A stretch of DNA of 64,000 bases, taken from contig CAXMWX010000005.1 in NCBI GenBank assembly GCA_963422205.2, positions 512,001 through 576,000 of the forward strand, read 5' to 3'. This document shows, in pieces, positions 50,948-64,000 of the stretch. The position numbers and the translations under genes were made by a program. Positions within the stretch are counted from its first letter, which is position 1; every line of letters starts with the position of its first letter. The notes below the pieces were generated by a model. The model did no database searches, had not been told where the DNA came from, and saw nothing but the letters and a program-made list of their open reading frames with translations. This stretch comes from Gammaproteobacteria bacterium. Its GTDB lineage: Bacteria; Pseudomonadota; Gammaproteobacteria; Eutrophobiales; Eutrophobiaceae.

Positions 50948-51964
50948 ATGTTGTTGCACATGCGTGATGATAAGGCACAGCAACGCGCACCGCGAAATCG
51001 TACTATCAGCTTGGGCGAAGCGGAGCAAGCAAATCATACAAAGAAACTCATCAAAATCACCCGGCCGGTTTGTATTGATGAGATACTGAACAAGACCATA
51101 CAGCAGGATGTCTTTGATGTACTGGATCATTTGCCGGACGCATTTATCGATCTCGTGTTCGTTGACCCGCCGTACAATTTCAACAAGACATTCAATCTCA
51201 CAACGTTCCGGGAAATGGATACTGAAAAATACCAGTGCTGGCTGGATTCCTGGATGAGTAAAATGGTGCGCCTGTTAAAGCCAGATGCATCAATCTATAT
51301 TTGCGGCGATTGGAAATCATCGACGGCTGTTTTTAACATCGCCAGGAAGTATTTCAGGATTCAAAACCGCATCACTTTCGAGAGAGAAAAAGGGCGCGGT
51401 GCAAAAACGAATTGGAAAAACAGCGCCGAGGATATTTGGTTTTGCACCATGTCAAAAAATTACTACTTCAACGTTGAAGCGGTGAAAATGAAAAGAAAGG
51501 TGCTGGCGCCGTATCGTGATAACTCCGGCAGGGCGAAAGACTGGAACGAGGAGAGAAACGGCAAATACCGCTTAACGCATCCGTCCAACATCTGGACCGA
51601 CATCACCATTCCGTTTTGGTCCATGCCCGAAAACACCGACCACCCAACGCAAAAACCGGAAAAACTCGTGGCGAAAATCCTGCTTGCAAGTTCCAGGCCC
51701 GGCGCTGTGATCTTTGATCCATTTCTCGGCTCCGGCACCACATCCGTGGTGGCAAAGAAGCTGGGAAGGCAGTATGTAGGAATAGAAATCGATGAATACT
51801 ATGGCTGTCTTGCCGAGAGGCGACTGGAACTGGCAGAGGCAGATAACAGCATTCAGGGGTATTGCGATGGCGTCTTTTGGGAGCGGAATACGCTTAGCGA
51901 ACAGACTAATGAGACGGGTGAAAATCATCAAGCGAGAGAACCGGAAGACATGCTGGCTGGATAA
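50948..51964 (+). CDS. Orphan N4/N6 DNA methyltransferase (beta class)
   Basis: Motif IV DPPY precedes HPTQKP and motif I DPFLGSGTT...GIEID; no adjacent restriction endonuclease. Confidence 0.9.
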   Translation: MLLHMRDDKAQQRAPRNRTISLGEAEQANHTKKLIKITRPVCIDEILNKTIQQDVFDVLDHLPDAFIDLVFVDPPYNFNKTFNLTTFREMDTEKYQCWLDSWMSKMVRLLKPDASIYICGDWKSSTAVFNIARKYFRIQNRITFEREKGRGAKTNWKNSAEDIWFCTMSKNYYFNVEAVKMKRKVLAPYRDNSGRAKDWNEERNGKYRLTHPSNIWTDITIPFWSMPENTDHPTQKPEKLVAKILLASSRPGAVIFDPFLGSGTTSVVAKKLGRQYVGIEIDEYYGCLAERRLELAEADNSIQGYCDGVFWERNTLSEQTNETGENHQAREPEDMLAG

Positions 51965-53730: not shown

Positions 53731-55056
53731 TTATCCATGCACTCGCTCGCCCAGCAGATGGGTTTCCCGGATCACCCGATCATCACCTAACATCATCAGG
53801 ACAAACAATTTCTCTTCCAGATGCTCTGGCAGATGCTCTACCATATTCATGCGCCTCTCCAGCAGGGGCGTGGCGGCAGGCTCGATGATGATAAAATCTG
53901 CCTCTTTGCCGGCGGCAAAATTACCCACATGCTGATCAATATATAAAGCGCGGGCACCGCCCAGGGTGGCCAGATAAAAAGCCCGCAATGATGACAAGGA
54001 CTGGCCGGACATCCGCATGACCTTGTATGCCTCATGCAGGGTCTGCAACATGCCAAAACTGCTGCCGCCACCCACATCAGTCGCCATGCCGACACGCATA
54101 CCGGCATCATCGGCGGCCTGCATATCAAACAAACCACTGCCCAGGAATAAATTCGAGGTCGGACAAAATGCCGCGGCGGCGCCACAGGCGGCCATGCGCC
54201 GTCGGTCGGCGGCATCCAGATAAATACAGTGCGCCAGCACCGAGCGCTCTCGCAACAAGCCGAAGGCATCGTACACATCCAGATAACTTCGGCTGTGCGG
54301 AAACAACGCGGCAACCCACTTGACCTCCTCCCGATTTTCTGCCACGTGGGTGTGCATGAACACATCATCATATTCATCCAGCAAACGGCCGGCCAGCTTT
54401 AGCTGTGCGCTGGTTGAGGTAGGCGCAAAACGCGGAGTGACCGCATATAAAAAACGATCTTTTTTATGCCAGGTCTCGATCAATGCCCTGACATCGGCAT
54501 AACCTGATTGTACGCTATCCTGAAAATCATCCGGGCAGTTCCTGTCCATCATCACCTTGCCGGCGGCAAGGCGCATACGATAACGCCGGGCAGCGGTAAA
54601 AACCGCATCAATGCTTTGCTTGTGTACACTGCCCAGCACCAGCGCCGAGGTGGTGCCATTGCGAAACAACTCCTGTAGAAAAAAGTCCGCCACCTCACAG
54701 GCATAGGCATAATCGGCAAAACGTCTCTCGGCAGGAAAGGTATATCGCTGCAACCAGTCGAGCAATTCCCCGGCGGGCGAGGCAATGATATCCGCTTGCA
54801 CATAATGTATATGGCAGTCGATAAACCCCGGCATGATCAGACAGCCGGAATAATCCTGTACCTTAACCCCCTCAAGGCCAGGCAACAATTCCTGATAAGG
54901 CCCAACGCTGATGACATGACCGGCATCCAGAAGCAACAGCCCATCGGCAAAATATTCATAGGCCAGGTGCGAGTCGGTTGTGGCAGGATCATCGAGGAAG
55001 TGTAGAATGCTGGCACGCAGGGCCTTTGTCTCTGCATTTTTTGCAGCTATGATCAT
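53731..55056 (-). CDS. guaD: Guanine deaminase
   Basis: PGFIDCHIHY.Q, LLDWL..YTFPAE, YAVTPRFAPTS, HTHVAEN, FCPTSNLFLGSG, TDVGGG, LGDDR. Confidence 0.93.
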   Translation of the reverse strand: MIIAAKNAETKALRASILHFLDDPATTDSHLAYEYFADGLLLLDAGHVISVGPYQELLPGLEGVKVQDYSGCLIMPGFIDCHIHYVQADIIASPAGELLDWLQRYTFPAERRFADYAYACEVADFFLQELFRNGTTSALVLGSVHKQSIDAVFTAARRYRMRLAAGKVMMDRNCPDDFQDSVQSGYADVRALIETWHKKDRFLYAVTPRFAPTSTSAQLKLAGRLLDEYDDVFMHTHVAENREEVKWVAALFPHSRSYLDVYDAFGLLRERSVLAHCIYLDAADRRRMAACGAAAAFCPTSNLFLGSGLFDMQAADDAGMRVGMATDVGGGSSFGMLQTLHEAYKVMRMSGQSLSSLRAFYLATLGGARALYIDQHVGNFAAGKEADFIIIEPAATPLLERRMNMVEHLPEHLEEKLFVLMMLGDDRVIRETHLLGERVHG

Positions 55057-55255
55057 GCAGCAGGACTCCTTGACATGGACTAAACGACAGGCTGTTATGC
55101 AAACGCCAGCGGCTGATGCCGCTGCTGGCAAGTGCAAACGCCTAGCGTAAAAGTATGCCTGATTTTCACAGAAAAAACAGGATGACTGGCCACCGGCAAG
55201 ACATTATCATCGGCGCAAAAACGATCTGCACCCAAGACCCCCGGAGTGCATCATC

Positions 55256-55819
55256 ATGGTTGAAAAAGTCTATCTCAGTGCCAATGAATTATTGGCTGAT
55301 TCCTTTACCATGGCCGCAGAGATATATGCCAGCGGCTTCCGCCCGGACTTTATCATCGGCATCTGGCGCGGCGGTACCCCGGTGGGAATCGCCGTCCAGG
55401 AATACCTGCAATACAAAGGCGTAAAAACCGATCACATCGCCATCCGCACCTCCTCGTATACCGGTATCAACCAGCCGTCAAAAACCATCCGTGTACACGG
55501 CCTGCATTACATCATCGAGAACGTCAATGCGGACGACTCACTGCTGATCGTTGACGATGTGTTTGATTCCGGCAGCAGCATCCAGGCGGTGATTGATGAG
55601 TTGTCCCAGAAAACCCGCCGTAATATGCCGGAGGTGCTGAAGATAGCCTGTCCCTGGTATAAGCCTGACAATAACAAAACCGATATCGTGCCGGATTACT
55701 ACCTGCATGAAACCGCGGCCTGGCTGGTGTTTCCACATGAGTTGATCGGCTTGCGTATTGAGGAGATCCGCCAGGGCAAGCCGGAGATGGCGGAGGTGTT
55801 GGCATCCCTTAAAGACTGA
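55256..55819 (+). CDS. Purine (hypoxanthine/xanthine-guanine) phosphoribosyltransferase
   Basis: IGIWRGG, PRPP-binding LLIVDDVFDSGSS, WLVFPHE. Confidence 0.85.
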   Translation: MVEKVYLSANELLADSFTMAAEIYASGFRPDFIIGIWRGGTPVGIAVQEYLQYKGVKTDHIAIRTSSYTGINQPSKTIRVHGLHYIIENVNADDSLLIVDDVFDSGSSIQAVIDELSQKTRRNMPEVLKIACPWYKPDNNKTDIVPDYYLHETAAWLVFPHELIGLRIEEIRQGKPEMAEVLASLKD

Positions 55820-55932
55820 ACACCAGGCGGCCTGATACCAACACGCTGGCTTGCGATCTGATCTGTGCCGAGATCAGGATTGCGACAGCACCCATCACCA
55901 CCGGCGATAAAAGCAGGCCCTTGCCCTAAATC

Positions 55933-56988
55933 TCATGCCGCAAACACGGCCGACAAGTTCTGTGCAAAAGGCGGGGAGATGATGCCTTTCTCCGTGATGA
56001 TGGCGGTAATGTACTTCGCCGGTGTCACGTCAAATGCAGGATTACCTGCCAGCGTTCCTTCCGGGGCAATCTGCTCATTGCCGATGCGGATCACCTCCTC
56101 CGGGTCGCGCTGTTCGATCTCAATCCCGCCTCCGTCCGCGGTCGAGATATCGATCGTGGACGTGGGGGCGGCGATGTAAAACGGCACGGCATGGGCGTAT
56201 GCCACCAGCGCCAGGTTATAAGTGCCGATTTTATTCGCCGTATCGCCATTGGCAGCAATACGATCACAACCCACCACACAAAAATCCACCCCGCCCCGCT
56301 GCATGTAAAAACCCGAAGCCCCATCCACGATCAGCGTGTGCGGAATCCCCAGTTGTGCCAACTCCCAGCAGGTCAGGCGCGCACCTTGCAGGCGCGGGCG
56401 GGTCTCATCCACCAGCACGGCAATATTCCGGCCCTGCTCGTGCGCCGTGCGAATCACGCCCAGTGCCGTACCATACCCCACGGTGGCCAGGCCGCCGGTG
56501 TTGCAATGGTGTATGGCCGTTGCCTGCTGCGGCACCAGCGCCAGCGCCTGTTCGCCGATGCGTTTGTTAATAGCGATATCCTCTCGGGCGATGGTATGGG
56601 CGGCGGTTAATACCTGCTGCCGTAACTCATCGGCACTGTGTACGTTGGCGCTGGCGATGTCTGCCTTAATGCGATCCAGCGCCCAGCACAGGTTCACCGC
56701 CGTCGGCCGGGCGCAGCGCAGCACAGCATCGGCCTTCTGGTAGAGCCGTTGCAGTGCTGCCAGATCATCGCTGCCGTGATGATAAAGCTCCACCGCCAGC
56801 CCATAGGCCGCCGCCGCACCGATGGCCGGTGCGCCCCGAATCACCATGTCCCTGATGGCCGCCGCCACCCCGGCAGCATCGGTATAATCCCAATAGACCT
56901 GCCGGGCCGGGAGCTGCCGTTGATCCAGCAGGCGCACGCTGTTATCGGCCTCACGCCAGGCAATACTGTGATACTCCATCGGCATCAC
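55933..56988 (-). CDS. mtnA: S-methyl-5-thioribose-1-phosphate isomerase
   Basis: LDQRQLP, MVIRGAPAIG, ARPTAVNL, HCNTGGLAT.GYGTALG, ETRPRLQGARLT, ANKIGTY, NPAFDVTP. Confidence 0.95.
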   Translation of the reverse strand: MMPMEYHSIAWREADNSVRLLDQRQLPARQVYWDYTDAAGVAAAIRDMVIRGAPAIGAAAAYGLAVELYHHGSDDLAALQRLYQKADAVLRCARPTAVNLCWALDRIKADIASANVHSADELRQQVLTAAHTIAREDIAINKRIGEQALALVPQQATAIHHCNTGGLATVGYGTALGVIRTAHEQGRNIAVLVDETRPRLQGARLTCWELAQLGIPHTLIVDGASGFYMQRGGVDFCVVGCDRIAANGDTANKIGTYNLALVAYAHAVPFYIAAPTSTIDISTADGGGIEIEQRDPEEVIRIGNEQIAPEGTLAGNPAFDVTPAKYITAIITEKGIISPPFAQNLSAVFAA

Positions 56989-56997
56989 GCCTCGCCT

Positions 56998-57786
56998 TCA
57001 AAAGGCTTTGCTGGACAGCACACCGCCATCCACCCGCAATTCCGCCCCGGTGATCCAGGCCGCGGCGGTAGAGCTTAAAAACAAACAGGCGTTGGCCACA
57101 TCCTCGGCCCGTCCCAGCCGCTCAAGCGGTGCTGACTTTCTCCAGCCCGCCACCCCTTCCGGCCATTCCGCTTCAATGCCTTGACGCCAGATAAGCCCGG
57201 GCAGCACGGCATTACAGCGAATACCATACCGCCCCAACTCACTGGCAGCACTGCGGGTAAACATATTCACGCCGGCTTTTGCCGCCGTGTAATGGCTGTG
57301 CATCGGCATGACATGCTGGGATTCAATCGATGAGATATTGACGATGGATTTGTGCCGGGCCGCCTTCATGTAGGCAATGACAGACTGGGTACATAAAAAC
57401 GTTGAGCGCATATTGGCGCACATCACAGCATCCCATTCGGCTGTCGTCATATCAACAATCGAAGAGAGGGGATAATGACCGGCATTGTTGATCAACACAT
57501 CAACCGGCTGGTCGGTGGCGATGTCGGCGAACATCTGCTGCACCTCCTGTTTCCTGCCAACATCGGCAGAAATCGTCACCGCCTGCCCGCCGTTGTCTTC
57601 GATCTTCCGTTGCAGTGCCTCGGCCCTCGCCCTGCCGGAGCGGTAATGAATAACCACACGCGCACCCGCCTCAGCAAAACGCTCGGCAATGCCCGCCCCC
57701 ACCACACCGCTTGCACCGGTGATGACCACCGTGCAGCCGGTAAAATCAGTAAACTCTGCCAAGCTGGATGAGGGCATCACATTCAT
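56998..57786 (-). CDS. SDR family NAD(P)-dependent oxidoreductase
   Basis: TGASGVVG, NNAG, YTAAK, ITGAELRVDGG; about 10 bp upstream of mtnA. Confidence 0.9.
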   Translation of the reverse strand: MNVMPSSSLAEFTDFTGCTVVITGASGVVGAGIAERFAEAGARVVIHYRSGRARAEALQRKIEDNGGQAVTISADVGRKQEVQQMFADIATDQPVDVLINNAGHYPLSSIVDMTTAEWDAVMCANMRSTFLCTQSVIAYMKAARHKSIVNISSIESQHVMPMHSHYTAAKAGVNMFTRSAASELGRYGIRCNAVLPGLIWRQGIEAEWPEGVAGWRKSAPLERLGRAEDVANACLFLSSTAAAWITGAELRVDGGVLSSKAF

Positions 57787-57933
57787 GCCGATAGCATAGC
57801 GCGCTGGCGCTGGCCTTGCCATGACAGATGGCGCAAAATGCCGACAGGAGTAGTTAAGGTGGGCGTGCCTGGGTTATGATCAGGCGGTGTTTCTTAAAAA
57901 CATACCTTAATAAAACCTACCGGAGATATCCTG

Positions 57934-59280
57934 ATGACCGTGGTTCGCCTCGCATTCAAGCACCCTCATCGTAAGCGGTTTTTGCAGGAGAAAACCATCC
58001 AGCGCCTCGTCCTGGATAAGTATGATTGCATTATCACCGAGGGTGAGCATGCAGATGTGCTGATACACGGCCCCAGGCTTACCCTAAAAGAGGGCGCTTT
58101 CCATACCGTGATAGACGATATCAATCTGCAACACACCCCGGCCAGAACCCTGATCTTCTGTGGCGAGAACATTGAAGCCGTGGATATGTTTCCCATGCCC
58201 ATAACGAAGGTGATACGTTTGCTGACGAGGTTGCTGAACCTGCTGCTACCCCCCCCCCCCCCCCCCCCCCCCCCCGAAAGTCATACAAATCGCACAAGCA
58301 TCATCGGGCAAATACCGAAGAGCACGGAGCCAAAGAGCGCGGGGAATGGAACGAGCCCCATGCTGACCGTTAGAATAGCGCTGGCCAGATCACTCGTGTT
58401 TCTCATTCATGCCATCATCAAGGTCTGGCTTAAAGTAGAAAAATCCAACACCATGCGCCGCTTGATCGACAGGAGAAAACTGTATTATCGCAGGCCGGCC
58501 TTAACCCGCTATATTCAGAACCTGCCTGGTGCCAATAACTATGTGGTGGCTACCAATAAAGTGAACGAGACGGACAACATCCTGACCCTGCCGCTCTTCT
58601 TTCGCCCCTGTAGCGGCGACTGGCAGCGGTTTACTGAACCCAAGCCAGGCTTGGAAGAGAAAACGCGCTTCTGTGCCTTTGCGGTATCTGGCCTCGGAGA
58701 TTGCAGCAGGCTGCACTGCCTGCGAAGCCTGCTGTGCGTTGAGTTATCCAAATACAAACCGGTCGACTGTTACGGGCCCTGGCTCAATAACGCCACCGTG
58801 CCGCAGGCGCTGGTAGAGAAACACAGCGAGGGAAAAACAAAACTGGATCATTTTACCGCAGCGGATATCATGCAGGCATGCAATAAGGCTTACCATCCTG
58901 ATTGTGGCGGGGTGGATCGCGATGCCTTGAATCAGGACGTGTTCAGGGACTACAAATTCGTGATTTGTTTTGAGAACAGCATCGCCGAGGATTACATCAC
59001 CGAGGAACTGCCCAATGTCATGCTGGGCGGCAGCATCGGTATTCATTACGGGGCGCCCAATGTGGGGGAGTATTTCAACCCCAAATCGTTTATCAATTAT
59101 GCGGACTACGATGATTACCAGGCGGTCATTGACAGGATCATCGCCCTGGACAAAGACGATGAGCAATACATGCACATGCTAAGCGAGCCTTATTTCCCGG
59201 ACAATCGGGTGCCGGAGATCATCATCGAAAAAGAAAAGGCGCTGTGCCGGTTTCTGGACAGGATTTTTCTTGGCCGATGA
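57934..59280 (+). CDS. Glycosyltransferase family 10 (alpha-1,3/4-fucosyltransferase-like) with an internal poly-C tract
   Basis: FCAFAVS...R...LSKYKPVDCYG, YKFVICFENS..EDYITE, FNPKSFIN. Confidence 0.8.
   Translation: MTVVRLAFKHPHRKRFLQEKTIQRLVLDKYDCIITEGEHADVLIHGPRLTLKEGAFHTVIDDINLQHTPARTLIFCGENIEAVDMFPMPITKVIRLLTRLLNLLLPPPPPPPPPESHTNRTSIIGQIPKSTEPKSAGNGTSPMLTVRIALARSLVFLIHAIIKVWLKVEKSNTMRRLIDRRKLYYRRPALTRYIQNLPGANNYVVATNKVNETDNILTLPLFFRPCSGDWQRFTEPKPGLEEKTRFCAFAVSGLGDCSRLHCLRSLLCVELSKYKPVDCYGPWLNNATVPQALVEKHSEGKTKLDHFTAADIMQACNKAYHPDCGGVDRDALNQDVFRDYKFVICFENSIAEDYITEELPNVMLGGSIGIHYGAPNVGEYFNPKSFINYADYDDYQAVIDRIIALDKDDEQYMHMLSEPYFPDNRVPEIIIEKEKALCRFLDRIFLGR
58249..58275 (+). repeat. Homopolymer tract C27 encoding Pro9 inside the GT10 gene
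   Basis: 27 consecutive C counted directly. Confidence 0.9.
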
Positions 59281-59311
59281 TAAGGCGGGCGTGAAGGCGA
59301 ACATTAAGATC

Positions 59312-60739
59312 ATGGCCATTATCTCCACAGATCATATCGCAGCTTTTTGGGCGGGATGCCTGGCCGTGCTGATAGCCGGCGGCCTGTGCGCTACGGCGAG
59401 CAATGCAGCAGAGGTTGATCTCATCATCAGTGCAGATCACATCGTCACCATGGATGAGAGAAATACCGTCATCAAAAACGGCGCACTGGCGATCAACGAT
59501 GGCAGCATCATCGCCATCGATCACCGTGACAGAATTCGCCAGCAATATCAGGCACGCCAGACTTTAAGCGGTCATCATCGTCTGCTCATGCCCGGCCTCA
59601 TCAACGGACATACCCATGCCGCCATGACCCTGTTTCGTGGTCTGGCCGATGATCTCGCCCTGATGGACTGGCTCAATAATTACATCTTTCCGGCGGAGAT
59701 CCGCTTTGTCGATGAGACCTTCGTGCGTATCGGCACCCAGTTAGCCTGTCTGGAGATGATCAAAGGCGGGACGACCACCTTCGTGGATATGTACTTCCAC
59801 CCACGGGAGATCGCCCGGGTCGTGGCGGCATGCGGTATGCGGGCGATTATCGGGGCGGCCGTGATTGAACAGCCCAGCGGCTACACCAAAGACTTTGCCG
59901 ATGCCATGCTAAAAGCCGAGCGTTTTATCGCCGAATGGCAAGGGAAAAACAGCCGCATCACACCGGCCTTCGCCGCCCATGCCGCTTATACCATCGGCCC
60001 GGAGAACCTGAAGCTCGTTCGCCAAGCAGCCAATGCCGCCGCCGTGCCGGTGCTCATCCACCTGGCCGAATCCCGAACCGAGCTTGAGATCATCGATCAG
60101 CGCTATAACAACACGCCGGTTAAGCACCTGGCCGCCATGGACTTCTTCAGCGGCCCGACGATAGCAGCGCATGTCGTCTGGCCAACCGATGCAGAACTGC
60201 CCATTCTGGCGCGATACCAGGTGGCGGCAATCCACAACCCCACTTCCAACATGAAAACCGCCTCCGGATTCGCCCCGGTGCCGAAACTGCTTCAGCAGGG
60301 CGTGCCGGTCGGCCTTGGCACCGATGGGGCGGCCTCCAATAATGATCTGGATATGTGGGAGGAGATTCGGCTGGCGGCGCTGCTGCACAAGGGGAAGTTA
60401 CTGAACCCGCAAATCCTGCCGGCCATGACTGTGCTGGAGATGGCCACCCGCCGGGGCGCCGAGGCGGTGGGCCTGGGGGAGATCACCGGCAGCCTGGCCG
60501 TGGGCAGGCGTGCCGATGTGATCCAAATCTCGCTTGAAGCGGCTCACCTGGTGCCGGTGTACGATGTGGTCTCGCATCTTGTCTACGCCGTTGATGCCCA
60601 GGATGTGCAGACCGTCATCATTGATGGCAAGGTGGTGATGCGTGATCGCAAGATCCTCACACTGAACGAAGCGGCTGTGATCGATGCTGCCCGCACCATC
60701 GCAACGCAAATCAACCAGGCCATGCGGGCAACGCCATAA
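59312..60739 (+). CDS. MTA/SAH deaminase-family amidohydrolase with a predicted signal peptide
   Basis: PGLINGHTHAAMTLFRGLADD..LMDWL, HLAES, HNPTSNMK.ASG, GTDGAASNNDLD; hydrophobic N-terminus ending ASNA-AE. Confidence 0.85.
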   Translation: MAIISTDHIAAFWAGCLAVLIAGGLCATASNAAEVDLIISADHIVTMDERNTVIKNGALAINDGSIIAIDHRDRIRQQYQARQTLSGHHRLLMPGLINGHTHAAMTLFRGLADDLALMDWLNNYIFPAEIRFVDETFVRIGTQLACLEMIKGGTTTFVDMYFHPREIARVVAACGMRAIIGAAVIEQPSGYTKDFADAMLKAERFIAEWQGKNSRITPAFAAHAAYTIGPENLKLVRQAANAAAVPVLIHLAESRTELEIIDQRYNNTPVKHLAAMDFFSGPTIAAHVVWPTDAELPILARYQVAAIHNPTSNMKTASGFAPVPKLLQQGVPVGLGTDGAASNNDLDMWEEIRLAALLHKGKLLNPQILPAMTVLEMATRRGAEAVGLGEITGSLAVGRRADVIQISLEAAHLVPVYDVVSHLVYAVDAQDVQTVIIDGKVVMRDRKILTLNEAAVIDAARTIATQINQAMRATP

Positions 60740-60751
60740 TGCCTTATCTCC

Positions 60752-61276
60752 ATGCCAGACATAACGGCTGAACAGATCATTGCACACCTTAACCTGCGGC
60801 CCCTGCCCATCGAAGGCGGCTATTATGCCGTCACCTACCGCTCGGATGAGACGCTGCCCGCTGCCAGCCTGCCTGAACGCTACGACAATGCTCGCCCGCT
60901 TGCCGGGGCGATCTATTTTTTGATGACCACAGCGCAGTTCTCCGCCCTGCACAGCTTGCCCACCGATGAGGTGTATTACTATCACCTGGGCGACCCGGTA
61001 GAGATGTTATTGCTGCATCCCGATGGGACGGGCACCGTCAGGATCCTCGGGGCGGATATCTGCGCCGGGCAACAGCTGCAAACCCTCGCCCCCCGACAGT
61101 GCTGGCATGGCGCCCGGCCACGGCCCGGCGCTCGGCATGGTTTCAGCCTGTGCAGCACCTCCATGGCACCGGCCTATGCCACAGGTGATGCGGTGTTTGC
61201 CGAACGGGAGGGGCTGATAGCACAGTATCCGCCATTTGGCACGCTGATCACCGCCTTGACTCGGCCAGCGGCCTGA
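60752..61276 (+). CDS. DUF985 / Cupin_5 family protein
   Basis: L.PLPIEGGYY..TYRS, AIYFLM, FSALH...DEVYYYH.GDP, W.GAR, MAP. Confidence 0.85.
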   Translation: MPDITAEQIIAHLNLRPLPIEGGYYAVTYRSDETLPAASLPERYDNARPLAGAIYFLMTTAQFSALHSLPTDEVYYYHLGDPVEMLLLHPDGTGTVRILGADICAGQQLQTLAPRQCWHGARPRPGARHGFSLCSTSMAPAYATGDAVFAEREGLIAQYPPFGTLITALTRPAA

Positions 61277-61306
61277 TACACCAGCAACCCCGTCAGCCAA
61301 GCCGCC

Positions 61307-62026
61307 ATGCCCGCCTATGTCTTTAACGCCCGGCCCGGTGATATTGCCGAGACGGTCATTATGCCCGGGGACCCGTTGCGGGCGAAGTATATTGCCGAGT
61401 CCTGTCTGGATGATGCCAGAGAAGTGACCAATGTACGCAATATGCTGGGTTTTAGCGGCAGCTACAATGGCAGGGCTGTCAGCGTCATCGGGCATGGGAT
61501 CGGCATTGCCTCAGCCATGCTCTATACCACCGAGTTGATCCGGGCGTGGGGCGTGCGGCGCATTATTCGGGTGGGTAGCTGTGGTACGGTCAGTGCGGCT
61601 GTCAAGCTGCGTGATCTGGTGATCGCCATGGGCGCATCGACCGACTCAAACGTGAACCGCACCCGCTTCAGGGGGCATGATCTGGCGGCGATAGCGGATT
61701 ATGATTTACTGCAAGCCGCCGTAGAGAATGCCCGCCGGCAGGGTCTCACCTACCATGTGTGTAACGTCTTCACTTCGGATTTTTTCTACCCCCCGGCGGA
61801 TGCCGAGATGTGGGATATTCTGGAACGCTACCGGGTGCCGGTCGTGGAGATGGAGATCGCCGGCATTTATGGCGTTGCAGCGGAATACGGTGCGGCGGCC
61901 ATCGCCCTGTGTACCGTCAGTGATGATGTGCATACCCACACAGGCATCTCCCAGAAAGAGCGGCAAGAGGGTTTTGATGACATGATCCGGGTGGCGCTGG
62001 AGACCGCCGCTGCACCCGCCCCATGA
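61307..62026 (+). CDS. deoD: Purine nucleoside phosphorylase, DeoD type (divergent)
   Basis: MPGDPLRAKYIAE, IRVGSCG, GASTDSNVNR, VEME, TVSD. Confidence 0.9.
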   Translation: MPAYVFNARPGDIAETVIMPGDPLRAKYIAESCLDDAREVTNVRNMLGFSGSYNGRAVSVIGHGIGIASAMLYTTELIRAWGVRRIIRVGSCGTVSAAVKLRDLVIAMGASTDSNVNRTRFRGHDLAAIADYDLLQAAVENARRQGLTYHVCNVFTSDFFYPPADAEMWDILERYRVPVVEMEIAGIYGVAAEYGAAAIALCTVSDDVHTHTGISQKERQEGFDDMIRVALETAAAPAP

Positions 62027-62261
62027 CAGCTATGCCGCAAGCCAGATCGGCCCTGCCGGGGCTTGTCAACGGCGCTGACGGACTGGGCGCTCGCAAACAG
62101 GGCTTGCCCTATGTTGCTTCTTCACAACAAAATCGAATCTTTCAATTTGCATTGTCAACAACCCGGTAATCCAGTACCCTCGCCGCCTGATATGAGCGCT
62201 TGACAACACATACCGGATCAACCCCGGATGGTTTATTTATCCCTAAGGAGACTAACAAGTT

Positions 62262-64000
62262 ATGAGATTCAATCCGCCCAGCATCGGCATTGCCTTGCTT
62301 GCAACCGCCTTCATTGGTCACACGTTTGCACAAGGCGTTCTGGAAGAGATCATCGTCACGGCACAGAAGCGTGAGCAGAATATTCAGGAGGTGCCCCTCT
62401 CCATAACCAACTTATCCGGGGACAGGCTAAATGCGCGGTTTACAGGCGGTGAGGATATCCTCAGTCTGTCCAGTGCGGCGCCGGGGCTGCATGTGGAATC
62501 ATCCAACGGTCGCCTGGCGCCGCGCTTTTATCTGCGTGGCCTCGGCAATGCGGATTTCACCCAGGCGGCATCCCAACCGGTATCCATCGTCTTTGATGAA
62601 GTGCCCATGGAAAAAGCGGCGCTGAAGGCATTTCCCCTGTTCGATATGGCGGACATTGAAGTCATTCGAGGCCCGCAGGGGACGCTGTTTGGTCGCAACA
62701 CAACAGCCGGTATTATCAAGATCGATTCACGCCGACCAACCGAAGAAACCGAAGGCTTTGCGAGGCTCGCTGTGGGTAATCTGGGTACTGTCAATGCCGA
62801 GGCAGCCATCGGCGGCACACTGGTTGAACAGGTATTAACAGGCCGGGCTTCATTCATGACTCAAAACCGTGCAGACTGGGTCAGCAATGGTTTCACGGGC
62901 GAAGCAGATGCCCTCGGCGGTCATAATGTGTTTGCCGGTCGGCTACAGTTGTTGTGGACGCCGAGAGATGATGTCACTGCCTGGGTGATGCACCAGCATC
63001 AGGACGCCGATGGTACTGCCAGCCTGTTCCGCGCCAATGTGCTCAGCACAGGCAGCAATGAACTCAACGATAATTATGATCGGGATACGGTATTTTTCGA
63101 TGGCGGCGACAATAATCCCGGCAAGATCAAATCACATGGCACCACGGTAAAACTGGACTGGGACATCAATCGGCATACCATTACCTCGATCACCGCTTAT
63201 CAGGATGTCTATGATCGCTTTGGCCGCTCTGATATTGATGGCGGTAACCCCCGCGGCCCGGGTAGGATACCCTTCCCGGTCGATACCGGCAGTTCTCTGG
63301 AACTCACGCAGTTCACGCAGGAGGTTCGTCTTGCCAGCCAGCTGGATGGGGCATTCAATTATCAGGTGGGGCTGTTTTATTTTGAGGATGATCTGGCAAT
63401 TAACTCCCAGGGGGTAAGACAGGAAGAGTTTCAAACCAACTCAACTTCCAATATTGAGAATACCACCTGGGCGGTCTTCGGACAGGGCAGCTATGCGGTA
63501 AATGAGCAACTGACGCTGACCGCCGGCGTGCGTTACACCGATGATGAGAAAGACGCCCTGCATGTTGATTTCAACCCGCCGATCATCCCGTCAGTGCCGA
63601 TTGCATTATCCGATGACAATATCAGTTGGGATCTGGCCTTATCCTATGCCATGACCGATGAGGCACAGGTCTATGCCCGTATTGCTTCCGGTTTCAGAGC
63701 ACCGACTATCCAGGATCGTATTGAGGATGATGTCAATATCACAACGGCTGATTCAGAGACCATCATGTCGTATGAGGTCGGTTACAAGGCAGACATCAAC
63801 CAGCGACTGCGCTTGAATACCGCCCTGTTCTATTATGACATTGATGATATGCAGCTCACCGCCATAGGCGGTACCGCAAACACGACCTCCCTGTTGAATG
63901 CAAAGGGCGGCGAGGGTTACGGTCTTGAGTTTGACATTGACTGGATCGCAACGGATAACCTGATAGTGTCCGGCGGTTTTGGCTATGCCAGGACAAAAAT
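62262..64000 (+). CDS. TonB-dependent receptor (partial, runs off the window end)
   Basis: TAAGGAG RBS, ATG 62262; manual translation MRFNPP...AQGVLEEIIVTAQKREQNIQEVPLSIT...IEVIRGPQGTLFGRNTTAG. Confidence 0.93.
   Translation, partial: MRFNPPSIGIALLATAFIGHTFAQGVLEEIIVTAQKREQNIQEVPLSITNLSGDRLNARFTGGEDILSLSSAAPGLHVESSNGRLAPRFYLRGLGNADFTQAASQPVSIVFDEVPMEKAALKAFPLFDMADIEVIRGPQGTLFGRNTTAGIIKIDSRRPTEETEGFARLAVGNLGTVNAEAAIGGTLVEQVLTGRASFMTQNRADWVSNGFTGEADALGGHNVFAGRLQLLWTPRDDVTAWVMHQHQDADGTASLFRANVLSTGSNELNDNYDRDTVFFDGGDNNPGKIKSHGTTVKLDWDINRHTITSITAYQDVYDRFGRSDIDGGNPRGPGRIPFPVDTGSSLELTQFTQEVRLASQLDGAFNYQVGLFYFEDDLAINSQGVRQEEFQTNSTSNIENTTWAVFGQGSYAVNEQLTLTAGVRYTDDEKDALHVDFNPPIIPSVPIALSDDNISWDLALSYAMTDEAQVYARIASGFRAPTIQDRIEDDVNITTADSETIMSYEVGYKADINQRLRLNTALFYYDIDDMQLTAIGGTANTTSLLNAKGGEGYGLEFDIDWIATDNLIVSGGFGYARTK

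Follow-up and report, generated by a model that had tools for sequence, protein, structure and literature searches.

Gene content of the locus

The window considered here is a 64,000 nt stretch from a Gammaproteobacteria bacterium of the Eutrophobiaceae (assembly GCA_963422205.2, contig CAXMWX010000005.1, positions 512,001-576,000 of the forward strand). Toward its end lies a cluster of purine nucleoside genes that includes mtnA, an exported amidohydrolase of the MtaD type, a specialised paralogue of the DeoD-type purine nucleoside phosphorylases (hereafter DeoD*) and a TonB-dependent receptor. The cluster probably serves the uptake of adenine nucleosides, including the waste of S-adenosylmethionine (SAM) chemistry, their deamination outside the cytoplasm and their breakdown by a new variant of a known salvage route. 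The genes were read from an open reading frame (ORF) listing together with Pfam and NCBIfam profile scans (Table 1); guaD, the purine phosphoribosyltransferase (PRTase), the pair formed by a short-chain dehydrogenase/reductase (SDR) and mtnA, the deaminase, the DUF985 cupin, deoD and the receptor are all present as described in an earlier interpretation made from the letters alone (the sequence-only reading). The deaminase, cupin, DeoD* and receptor genes follow one another with gaps of 12, 30 and 235 nt, respectively.

Table 1. Genes of the nucleoside cluster, in window coordinates; bit scores are given with the cut-off of the model where there is one
Feature	Position	Strand	Assignment and remarks
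guaD, guanine deaminase	53731-55137	-	TIGR02967 553.5 bits, cut-off 375
Purine (6-oxopurine-type) PRTase	55256-55819	+	PF00156; 187 aa
mtnA	55933-56988	-	TIGR00512 415 bits, cut-off 279
SDR oxidoreductase	56998-57822	-	PF13561/PF00106; ends 9 nt upstream of mtnA
GT10-like (fucosyltransferase-family) ORF	57934-59280	+	448 aa; between SDR and deaminase
Exported MtaD-type amidohydrolase	59270 (TTG) or 59312 (ATG) to 60739	+	PF01979 231 bits
DUF985/Cupin_5 protein	60752-61276	+	PF06172 120.7 bits, cut-off 25
DeoD*, DeoD-type phosphorylase paralogue	61307-62026	+	TIGR00107 309 bits, cut-off 232
TonB-dependent receptor	62262 to ~64427, past the window end at 64000	+	Plug and barrel domains; 721 aa in full

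The deaminase and its predicted export

The deaminase is the sole MtaD-type gene of the host genome (2.99 Mb in 14 contigs, 98% complete; all genome-wide absences given here refer to model cut-offs), the next paralogues being 26% identical. Its closest solved relative is 4f0r (E 7e-97), followed by 3lnp, 4dyk, 4gbd, 4dzh and Tm0936 (1p1m) down to E 2e-61, with matches over approximately the whole catalytic domain; the HTH, HLAE, AAH and GTDGAASN motifs, which hold the metal ligands (HxH, His, His, Asp) and the catalytic Glu, are all matched in the 4f0r alignment. The sequence-only reading had placed the protein among the deaminases of 5'-methylthioadenosine (MTA) and of S-adenosylhomocysteine (SAH), an assignment that these alignments support. 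Unlike the solved MTA, SAH and adenosine deaminases, the window protein carries an N-terminal signal segment of ~34-48 residues, misses the equivalog cut-offs and belongs to a separate exported clade. Counted from the ATG start, residue 35-36 is the first with homology to the cytoplasmic 4f0r; the hydrophobic signal segment runs up to ASNA, ahead of AE, near ~59413, and the catalytic domain runs from ~59414. The alternative TTG start at 59270 has AGGA 6 nt upstream and would add a lysine-rich n-region.

Relatives of the deaminase were taken as the best 80 of 553 related stretches in species-representative genomes, and the counts of neighbours of the exported deaminases below rest on these 80 loci; they come mostly from Woeseiaceae and Gammaproteobacteria metagenome-assembled genomes (MAGs), with four cyanobacteria. 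Under a loose rule a hydrophobic N-terminal extension is present in 88 of the 90 homologue rows with an intact 5' end (from a set of 94 rows that includes deaminases found beside DeoD and one duplicate contig, 4 rows being without the 5' end). Under a PROSITE-like rule applied to 89 intact loci, a lipobox is recognised in 61 and an h-region without one in 17; the other 11 fail, most of them resembling signal peptides by eye. The enzyme is predicted from these N-termini to be exported and to belong to a large clade of exported proteins, mostly lipoproteins; the suggestion of periplasmic deamination made in the sequence-only reading is considered well founded, as the signal-peptide-like N-terminus is kept in relatives as either a signal peptide or a lipobox.

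A different arrangement is usual elsewhere in the order. In other genera, 29 of the 30 sampled mtnA loci pair mtnA divergently with a deaminase 38-51% identical to that of the window; in the rows listed, these proteins are without a signal peptide and are extended at the N-terminus slightly if at all, many of them starting MNIDTLINARW. In a quick maximum-likelihood tree the 25 cytoplasmic mtnA-paired MtaD proteins of the order form one clade (support 99), the exported rows lie on the opposite side (91 rows, support 91) and the window deaminase groups with its six nearest relatives (support 99); a stray long branch, L090, is an Actinomycetota locus fetched with the cupin and is to be disregarded. 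Based on this separation and on the divergent pairing in other genera, the exported enzyme appears, in the lineage of the window, to sit beside mtnA where a cytoplasmic MtaD is usual. An amidohydrolase of 26% identity on contig C5 was considered as a cytoplasmic MtaD and rejected, being far under all cut-offs and joining guaD as a long-branched outgroup of the tree; it may be a deaminase of another kind. This C5 amidohydrolase has 460 aa (C5:207353-208735 on the minus strand, L007:1429-2811) and is flanked by a major facilitator superfamily transporter and an acyl-CoA synthetase fragment.

The genes found around the exported deaminases encode NupC, inosine-uridine nucleoside hydrolase, pyrimidine nucleoside phosphorylase, PfkB, DeoC, DeoD, 5'-nucleotidase, phosphopentomutase and PhoD. 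Together with the loci of genus g19 described below, these surroundings point to the deamination of adenine nucleosides outside the cytoplasm as something that recurs, and they show that specificity for SAM by-products is not a property of the whole clade. A search of the open literature for exported MtaD-type deaminases, or for periplasmic adenosine deaminase with TonB receptors, returned nothing relevant, subscription journals being outside its reach.

The DeoD* phosphorylase

DeoD* was compared across 80 loci fetched with it and 5 added earlier, and its subclade consists of the window and six loci: L091, L092 (the same as L019, the nearest relative), L093, L094, L095 and L041. The position of His4 in E. 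coli purine nucleoside phosphorylase (PNP) is Val in all seven members, while His is found in 89% of 78 canonical rows; twelve clade-specific positions lie near the nucleoside site, including Val for His4, Ile for Ala182 and Asp or Glu for His205, and the window protein also shows EMEIAG and VSDDV motifs. The closest solved match is the M64V mutant of E. coli PNP (1otx; ~230 residues, E 1e-87), with Ile at that position in the window. The M64V exchange is one which we take to open the pocket for 5'-modified nucleosides. As in E. coli DeoD and its M64V form, the phosphate site, Asp204 (VSD) and Arg217 (ERQ) are kept; DeoD* differs from both by the exchanges at positions 4, 182 and 205 and, in some members, by Ile for Met64. 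It is 61% identical to the canonical DeoD encoded downstream, which keeps His4 and begins MTTKHINA, and the two score 318 and 365 bits, respectively, against the DeoD models. According to the relevant passages of PMC6193948 and PMC3434127, His4 is donated into the active site of the neighbouring subunit, where it hydrogen-bonds a ribosyl hydroxyl.

DeoD* is proposed, from these residues and from its neighbours, as a candidate 5'-deoxy/5'-methylthio-nucleoside phosphorylase. It is the obvious candidate for removing 5'-deoxyadenosine because the genome encodes no other enzyme for it over cut-off: there are zero TIGR01694 matches (MTAP family, MtnP), no MtnN over cut-off (the TIGR01704 matches are only the two DeoD paralogues, both sub-cut-off) and no PF00962 adenosine deaminase (Add). 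The canonical front end of the dihydroxyacetone phosphate (DHAP) shunt, either MtnP or MtnN/Pfs with MtnK, was thus not found over cut-off, MtnK not having been searched.

The neighbourhood of DeoD* is conserved. Both mtnA and the exported deaminase lie beside it wherever context exists, in five of the six related loci and the window, the contig of the sixth (L093) beginning at the gene; a TonB receptor adjoins it in 6 of the 7 members, the cupin in 4 and the SDR in 2. A loose synteny without functional coupling, in which purine genes, a receptor and mtnA came together by chance in a small, receptor-rich genome, would be consistent with the SDR, cupin, guaD and PRTase coming and going among relatives, with the plasticity indicated by the GT10-like insertion, and with scans for promoters and terminators, whose counts are no higher than in shuffled controls and are uninformative on operon boundaries. 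However, the core is kept across relatives although the cluster proteins are only 60-79% identical, the gene spacing is tight or overlapping, and the clade-specific residues of DeoD* co-occur with the neighbourhood; chance is therefore considered very improbable as an explanation.

MtnA, the class II aldolase and the sugar branch

The mtnA product is a 5-deoxy/5-methylthio-ribose-1-phosphate isomerase of the MtnA type, which exceeds the cut-off of its own model and stays under that of the ribose-1,5-bisphosphate isomerase model (TIGR00511, 214 bits against 314). The sequence-only reading was correct that mtnB, mtnC, mtnD and a class II aldolase are absent from the window. The rest of the genome fills one of these gaps: a FucA-like class II aldolase (Ald2) of 214 aa is encoded on contig C5 beside ychF, unlinked to the cluster; MtnB and MtnD are not found over cut-off genome-wide, and mtnC was not searched. 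In relatives a class II aldolase gene (PF00596) stands directly after mtnA, in the order SDR-mtnA-aldolase in L019, mtnA-aldolase in L041 and mtnA-aldolase-add in the closed genome G125 (locus L232). The C5 aldolase is 62-63% identical to these mtnA-linked aldolases and is their best match in the genome, a degree of similarity that agrees with the 64-71% of the other cluster proteins. On the basis of this aldolase and its orthologues directly after mtnA, the sugar branch is read as the known DHAP shunt, with no unknown steps needed, and the idea that the SDR and cupin might fill undescribed steps on the sugar phosphate is not upheld.

The MTA-isoprenoid shunt combines a RuBisCO-like protein with a cupin methylsulfurylase. 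This shunt, with the window cupin as methylsulfurylase, is ruled out by the missing RuBisCO-like protein (zero PF00016 matches in the genome). In the order as a whole, 118 of 126 genomes carry an mtnA over cut-off and 79 an orthologue of the aldolase, while only 21 have mtnB; deoB passes its cut-off in no more than 7, though DeoD and DeoC clusters are common. The order may thus run mainly on the DHAP shunt together with an unidentified phosphopentomutase.

In a related scheme the ribose-1-phosphate set free by the DeoD enzymes would be converted by MtnA and the FucA-like aldolase, either directly to ribulose-1-phosphate or via a bisphosphate, giving DHAP and glycolaldehyde, with the SDR reducing the latter and the whole standing in for the missing phosphopentomutase. 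Halophilic archaea's non-carboxylating pentose bisphosphate pathway, as far as it is set out in the passages of PMC9700705 concerned, has a FucA-like aldolase giving DHAP and an aldehyde, and the gene set here is similar in its nucleoside phosphorylase, nearby PfkB kinase, eIF2B-family isomerase, FucA-like (ribulose-1-phosphate) aldolase and reductase; moreover, the C5 aldolase scores 188 bits against the ribulose-1-phosphate aldolase model. That score is well below the cut-off (300 for NF053831), however, and unlike the archaeal system the window has an isomerase of the MtnA type, no convincing ribose-1-phosphate kinase (the PfkB protein reaches only 47 bits against a cut-off of 330 for NF053626 and lies outside the conserved core of L041 and L232) and no candidate for a ribulose bisphosphate phosphatase in the cluster. 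The His4-to-Val exchange removes a contact to a ribosyl hydroxyl, arguing against ordinary ribose as the substrate. The host genome is without deoB, which would fit such a stand-in; this argument was discarded, as the absence extends to 119 of the 126 genomes with or without the cassette, and deoB is present in 5 of 6 g34 genomes that have the cassette. A shunt for ribose-1-phosphate is accordingly considered improbable here.

The receptor and its link to the envelope

The TonB-dependent receptor carries a signal peptide; among solved structures only the plug region of 4epa matched, with no close structure. Orthologues 63-68% identical are found in L019 and L041, and other receptors (40-44%) stand beside the cassette in L091, L093 and L095. 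The proposed coupling to outer-membrane uptake gains support from the adjacency of a TonB receptor to DeoD* noted above; among the exported deaminases more widely, 16 of the 64 loci with at least 2.8 kb of upstream sequence have a co-oriented receptor gene directly upstream, and 25 of 74 have one on either side at a distance of up to 3.5 kb. No riboswitch was found before the receptor at E 0.01 or better in L005, L006, L019 or L041, apart from the thiamine pyrophosphate (TPP) riboswitch of a second, unrelated receptor. Open literature on MTA with TonB receptors, or on Woeseia with nucleosides, gave nothing relevant, with subscription journals again outside the reach of the search. In L019 a protein with a beta-lactamase fold is encoded between DeoD* and the receptor.

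An inner-membrane step is suggested by the closed g34 genome G125, which has an operon of deaminase, cupin, DeoD* and NupC facing mtnA-ald2-add; NupC in this operon would supply transport across the inner membrane. The window genome has one NupC-family transporter, on another contig, and AhcY is also present. Beyond the window end the cluster continues with the remainder of the receptor gene, PhoD (with a twin-arginine signal motif) and the overlapping gene of the canonical second DeoD, with deoC and a PfkB kinase on the other strand, and then a LOG-family gene.

The SDR and the DUF985 cupin

The SDR reaches no NCBIfam equivalog, yet its orthologues can be traced reliably, as they match the window SDR best in its genome (204-353 bits against at most 137 for any other match). 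This also holds for the more distant SDRs of genus g19 (45-50% identical) and a Woeseiaceae SDR (43%), which match it at 204-248 bits against at most 119 for others. The neighbours of the orthologues are mtnA in L019, deoC and the cupin in g19, and in Woeseiaceae deoD together with a TonB receptor.

The cupin is present in a single copy in the genome and its solved relatives are 1yud and 3loi/3lzz. We know of no established function for DUF985. One animal member binds GDP (3lzz; PMC11594714) and, according to PMC8704077, which cites other work, has been reported as a phosphoglucose isomerase. A search with the single sequence gave only 1 relative, so neighbourhoods were taken from a Cupin_5 family search across the order, in which the family is found in 30 of the 126 genomes. 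In all six g34 loci the cupin gene directly follows that of the deaminase, with DeoD* next in five and the sixth locus ending inside the cupin; L019 and L094 show the same position. Of 22 loci in g19, 12 have it divergent from an SDR gene, usually with deoC following, and 15 have the SDR or deoC at a distance of at most 1.5 kb; DeoD and NupC are encoded alongside.

The SDR and cupin had been suggested as possible undescribed steps on the sugar phosphate or base; their recurrence beside deoC, deoD and nupC in another genus argues instead that the pair belongs to nucleoside catabolism generally and has no special tie to mtnA. Acetaldehyde-type products are released by DeoC as well as by Ald2, which makes an aldehyde reductase the best guess for the SDR.

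Proposed route

The region is considered to be the centre of a nucleoside and nucleotide scavenging island whose lineage-specific core is a new front end to the DHAP shunt, a reading to which we assign a probability of roughly 0.55. Gene content, family membership, signal peptides, co-conservation and the absence of canonical enzymes are the observations on which the following route is built, and we infer from them all of its substrates, locations and the order of its steps. Nucleotides or nucleosides would pass the outer membrane by way of the TonB-dependent receptor; once in the periplasm they would lose phosphate through the Tat-exported PhoD, and the Sec-exported MtaD-type deaminase would there make the inosine forms, the candidate substrates being adenosine, 5'-deoxyadenosine, MTA and perhaps SAH. 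A NupC-type transporter, unlinked here and part of the operon in a relative, would import the inosine forms. In the cytoplasm DeoD* would phosphorolyse the 5'-modified nucleosides to hypoxanthine (or adenine) and 5-deoxy- or 5-methylthio-ribose-1-phosphate; the sugar phosphate would be isomerised by MtnA, and its product cleaved by the unlinked Ald2 to DHAP and either acetaldehyde or 2-(methylthio)acetaldehyde. The bases would pass to the purine PRTase and GuaD, and ordinary (deoxy)nucleosides to the canonical DeoD, DeoC and the PfkB kinase; the SDR may act on the aldehyde product, both it and the cupin being placed as members of the nucleoside catabolic neighbourhood.

The two enzymes assigned to the bases vary among relatives. 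A guaD orthologue (64% identity) is found in L041; homology of the window guaD from residue 36 on suggests that its true start is probably downstream of the first TTG. The closest solved relatives of the PRTase are the purine phosphoribosyltransferases 1vdm and 4z1o/4trb, and its orthologues adjoin the cassette in L041 (82%) and L091/G011 (73%) and deaminase-DeoD pairs in other MAGs. In L019 (1967-6215 and 12783-14081) genes for xanthine dehydrogenase subunits, a 5-hydroxyisourate hydrolase and a regulator of the GntR type lie on the flanks of the cassette, which suggests onward oxidation of hypoxanthine in that relative.

Relation to known systems

Deamination-first salvage of such nucleosides is not new in itself. 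Pseudomonas aeruginosa reportedly salvages MTA by an MTA deaminase followed by a methylthioinosine phosphorylase, and Methanocaldococcus jannaschii is said to use a 5'-deoxyadenosine deaminase, DadD (work attributed to Miller, 2014 and 2018). The window resembles both in that deamination would precede phosphorolysis with MtnA next, and the divergent mtnA/mtaD pair is usual in its order; it differs by the signal peptide on the deaminase, where theirs is cytoplasmic, by the lack of an MTAP-family gene, where theirs is a trimeric phosphorylase of that family, and by an aldolase instead of MtnB, -C and -D. Universal methionine salvage (MtnA-B-C-D) is likewise unlike the present system, MtnB and MtnD being absent as described above.

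The DHAP shunt of Rhodospirillum rubrum and extraintestinal E. coli consists, in the parts of PMC10986504 that describe it, of Pfs/MtnN with MtnK or of MtnP, followed by MtnA, Ald2 and an alcohol dehydrogenase. With it, E. coli strains can use external MTA and 5'-deoxyadenosine for growth, and those parts name only the two front-end variants, Pfs with MtnK or MtnP. The cluster shares with it MtnA, a FucA-like class II aldolase (adjacent in relatives) and an oxidoreductase beside mtnA, and the use of exogenous 5'-deoxynucleosides, supported in E. coli, would be common to both. It differs in its front end, with neither MtnP nor MtnN and, further along, no MtnB over cut-off; in their place a DeoD-type hexameric phosphorylase is proposed, together with the exported deaminase and the link to a TonB receptor.

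The chemistry after the phosphorylase (the DHAP shunt) and deamination before phosphorolysis are therefore known. What appears to be new is the export of an MtaD-type enzyme, the replacement of MtnP by a DeoD-type phosphorylase with Val for His4, the repeated association with TonB receptors, NupC and PhoD, and the SDR/DUF985 pair.

Weighing the substrates

The least certain part of the proposed route is which nucleosides it handles, and several observations weigh against a specialisation on 5'-modified substrates or against the route as drawn. The deaminase falls under every NCBIfam equivalog cut-off (PRK09045, 476 against 540; NF005557, 361 against 522; NF012037, 286 against 779), and mtnA lies within 10 kb in only 2 of the 80 exported-deaminase loci. 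Since most of these loci are general nucleoside loci without mtnA, adenosine may be the usual substrate of the clade. Enzymes of the Tm0936 type accept adenosine too, as a passage of PMC4372640 indicates. Genus g19, which belongs to the same order, has beside NupC-DeoD a 512-aa deaminase of the unrelated PF00962 family whose N-terminus carries a lipobox (ending LFSAC; genome G038, L230:11941-13479), and such a protein in the equivalent place would fit plain adenosine. If periplasmic, the deaminase cannot serve the 5'-deoxyadenosine made by the cell itself, and DeoD* would need to accept adenine forms too. As for DeoD*, Ile stands in for Met64 in no more than 3 of its 7 members (the window, L091 and L094), and that the His4 contact is with the 5'-hydroxyl in particular is an assumption of ours. 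The passages cited for this residue (PMC6193948, PMC3434127) speak only of sugar hydroxyls. The C5 aldolase is both unlinked in the window genome and under the FucA equivalog cut-offs (208 against 264). Finally, when relatives are compared, the receptors adjacent to the cassette share only 40-68% identity, and the layout in the window, with the receptor set apart from deoD and followed by PhoD and canonical DeoD, is typical of phosphate or nucleotide scavenging.

Much of this would be explained by general nucleoside and nucleotide scavenging only, in which ordinary adenosine and nucleotides are gathered as sources of phosphorus, nitrogen and purines by the receptor, PhoD and exported deaminase; the housekeeping role left to DeoD*, MtnA and the aldolase would be to dispose of the cell's own 5'-deoxyadenosine, their place here reflecting shared purine salvage, with no flux of external MTA or 5'-deoxyadenosine. 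The 78 deaminase loci without mtnA, the unit of receptor, PhoD and canonical DeoD directly downstream, and the exported adenosine-deaminase-family lipoprotein of g19 all agree with it; mtnA is near-universal in the order (118/126), as expected of a housekeeping gene, and no spermidine synthase was found in the genome, so that the cell's own substrate would mainly be the 5'-deoxyadenosine formed by radical-SAM enzymes. However, the exported deaminase stands exactly where the cytoplasmic MtaD stands in 29 of the 30 sampled mtnA loci, it shares one operon with DeoD*, and DeoD* was in no case found without mtnA and the exported deaminase where context exists. In the genome of the same genus (G011, L091/L233), moreover, the order is deaminase-DeoD*-receptor with mtnA divergent, and the end of DeoD* and the start of the receptor share coordinate 3442. 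General scavenging as the sole function is for these reasons thought unlikely.

At the opposite end stands a dedicated envelope system by which Gammaproteobacteria of marine sediments would take up the MTA and 5'-deoxyadenosine of others, through the receptor, a periplasmic and often lipid-anchored deaminase, NupC, a DeoD-type phosphorylase of 5'-deoxyinosine and methylthioinosine with Val for His4, MtnA and Ald2, the SDR and DUF985 protein carrying out undescribed steps on the sugar or aldehyde. This version is possible but doubtful. The harvest of external SAM by-products had been put forward in the sequence-only reading; the co-conserved core and the absence of another enzyme for MTA or 5'-deoxyadenosine over cut-off speak for it, whereas the 78 loci without mtnA and the PhoD and canonical DeoD after the receptor make ordinary adenosine and nucleotides at least as likely substrates. 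For the scavenging island with its new front end to the DHAP shunt, the gene context accordingly makes adenosine as likely a substrate as MTA or 5'-deoxyadenosine.

Implications

The cluster points to a third front end for the DHAP shunt, with another phosphorylase family and with the first chemical step outside the cytoplasm. Woeseiaceae and their relatives are abundant in marine sediments. Exported MtaD-type deaminases, a group of at least 553 related stretches in species-representative genomes, recur in them beside TonB receptors and nucleoside catabolic genes. This suggests that debris from nucleic acids and cofactors is commonly turned over with the help of a periplasmic deamination of nucleosides, a step so far undescribed. 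A natural DeoD subfamily with Val for His4 would be relevant to the engineering of phosphorylases for 5'-modified nucleosides. The comparison also gives DUF985 and its partner SDR a reproducible genomic context and, if the dedicated system for MTA and 5'-deoxyadenosine proved true, would provide the first bacterial function for DUF985.

Neighbouring features

The GT10-like ORF between the SDR and the deaminase, which the sequence-only reading does not mention, contains a run of nine prolines and has a local G+C of 0.53 (0.56-0.62 in the flanks). A counterpart is found in 0 of the 80 related loci, and in L019 the SDR and deaminase genes are directly divergent with no such ORF between them; it is therefore probably a recent insertion, unrelated to the cluster.

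Past the window end, the second TonB receptor, a PnuC-family transporter and a thiamine-kinase-like kinase of the APH family have a TPP riboswitch (80 bits) directly upstream (L005:7460-11426, corresponding to ~69460-73426 in window numbering); this group is a separate vitamin-uptake unit of the thiamine type beside the nucleoside island. On the other side of the cluster, an N6/N4 DNA methyltransferase is encoded at 50948-51964 on the plus strand (PF01555, 152 bits), in a stretch with a G+C of 0.48.

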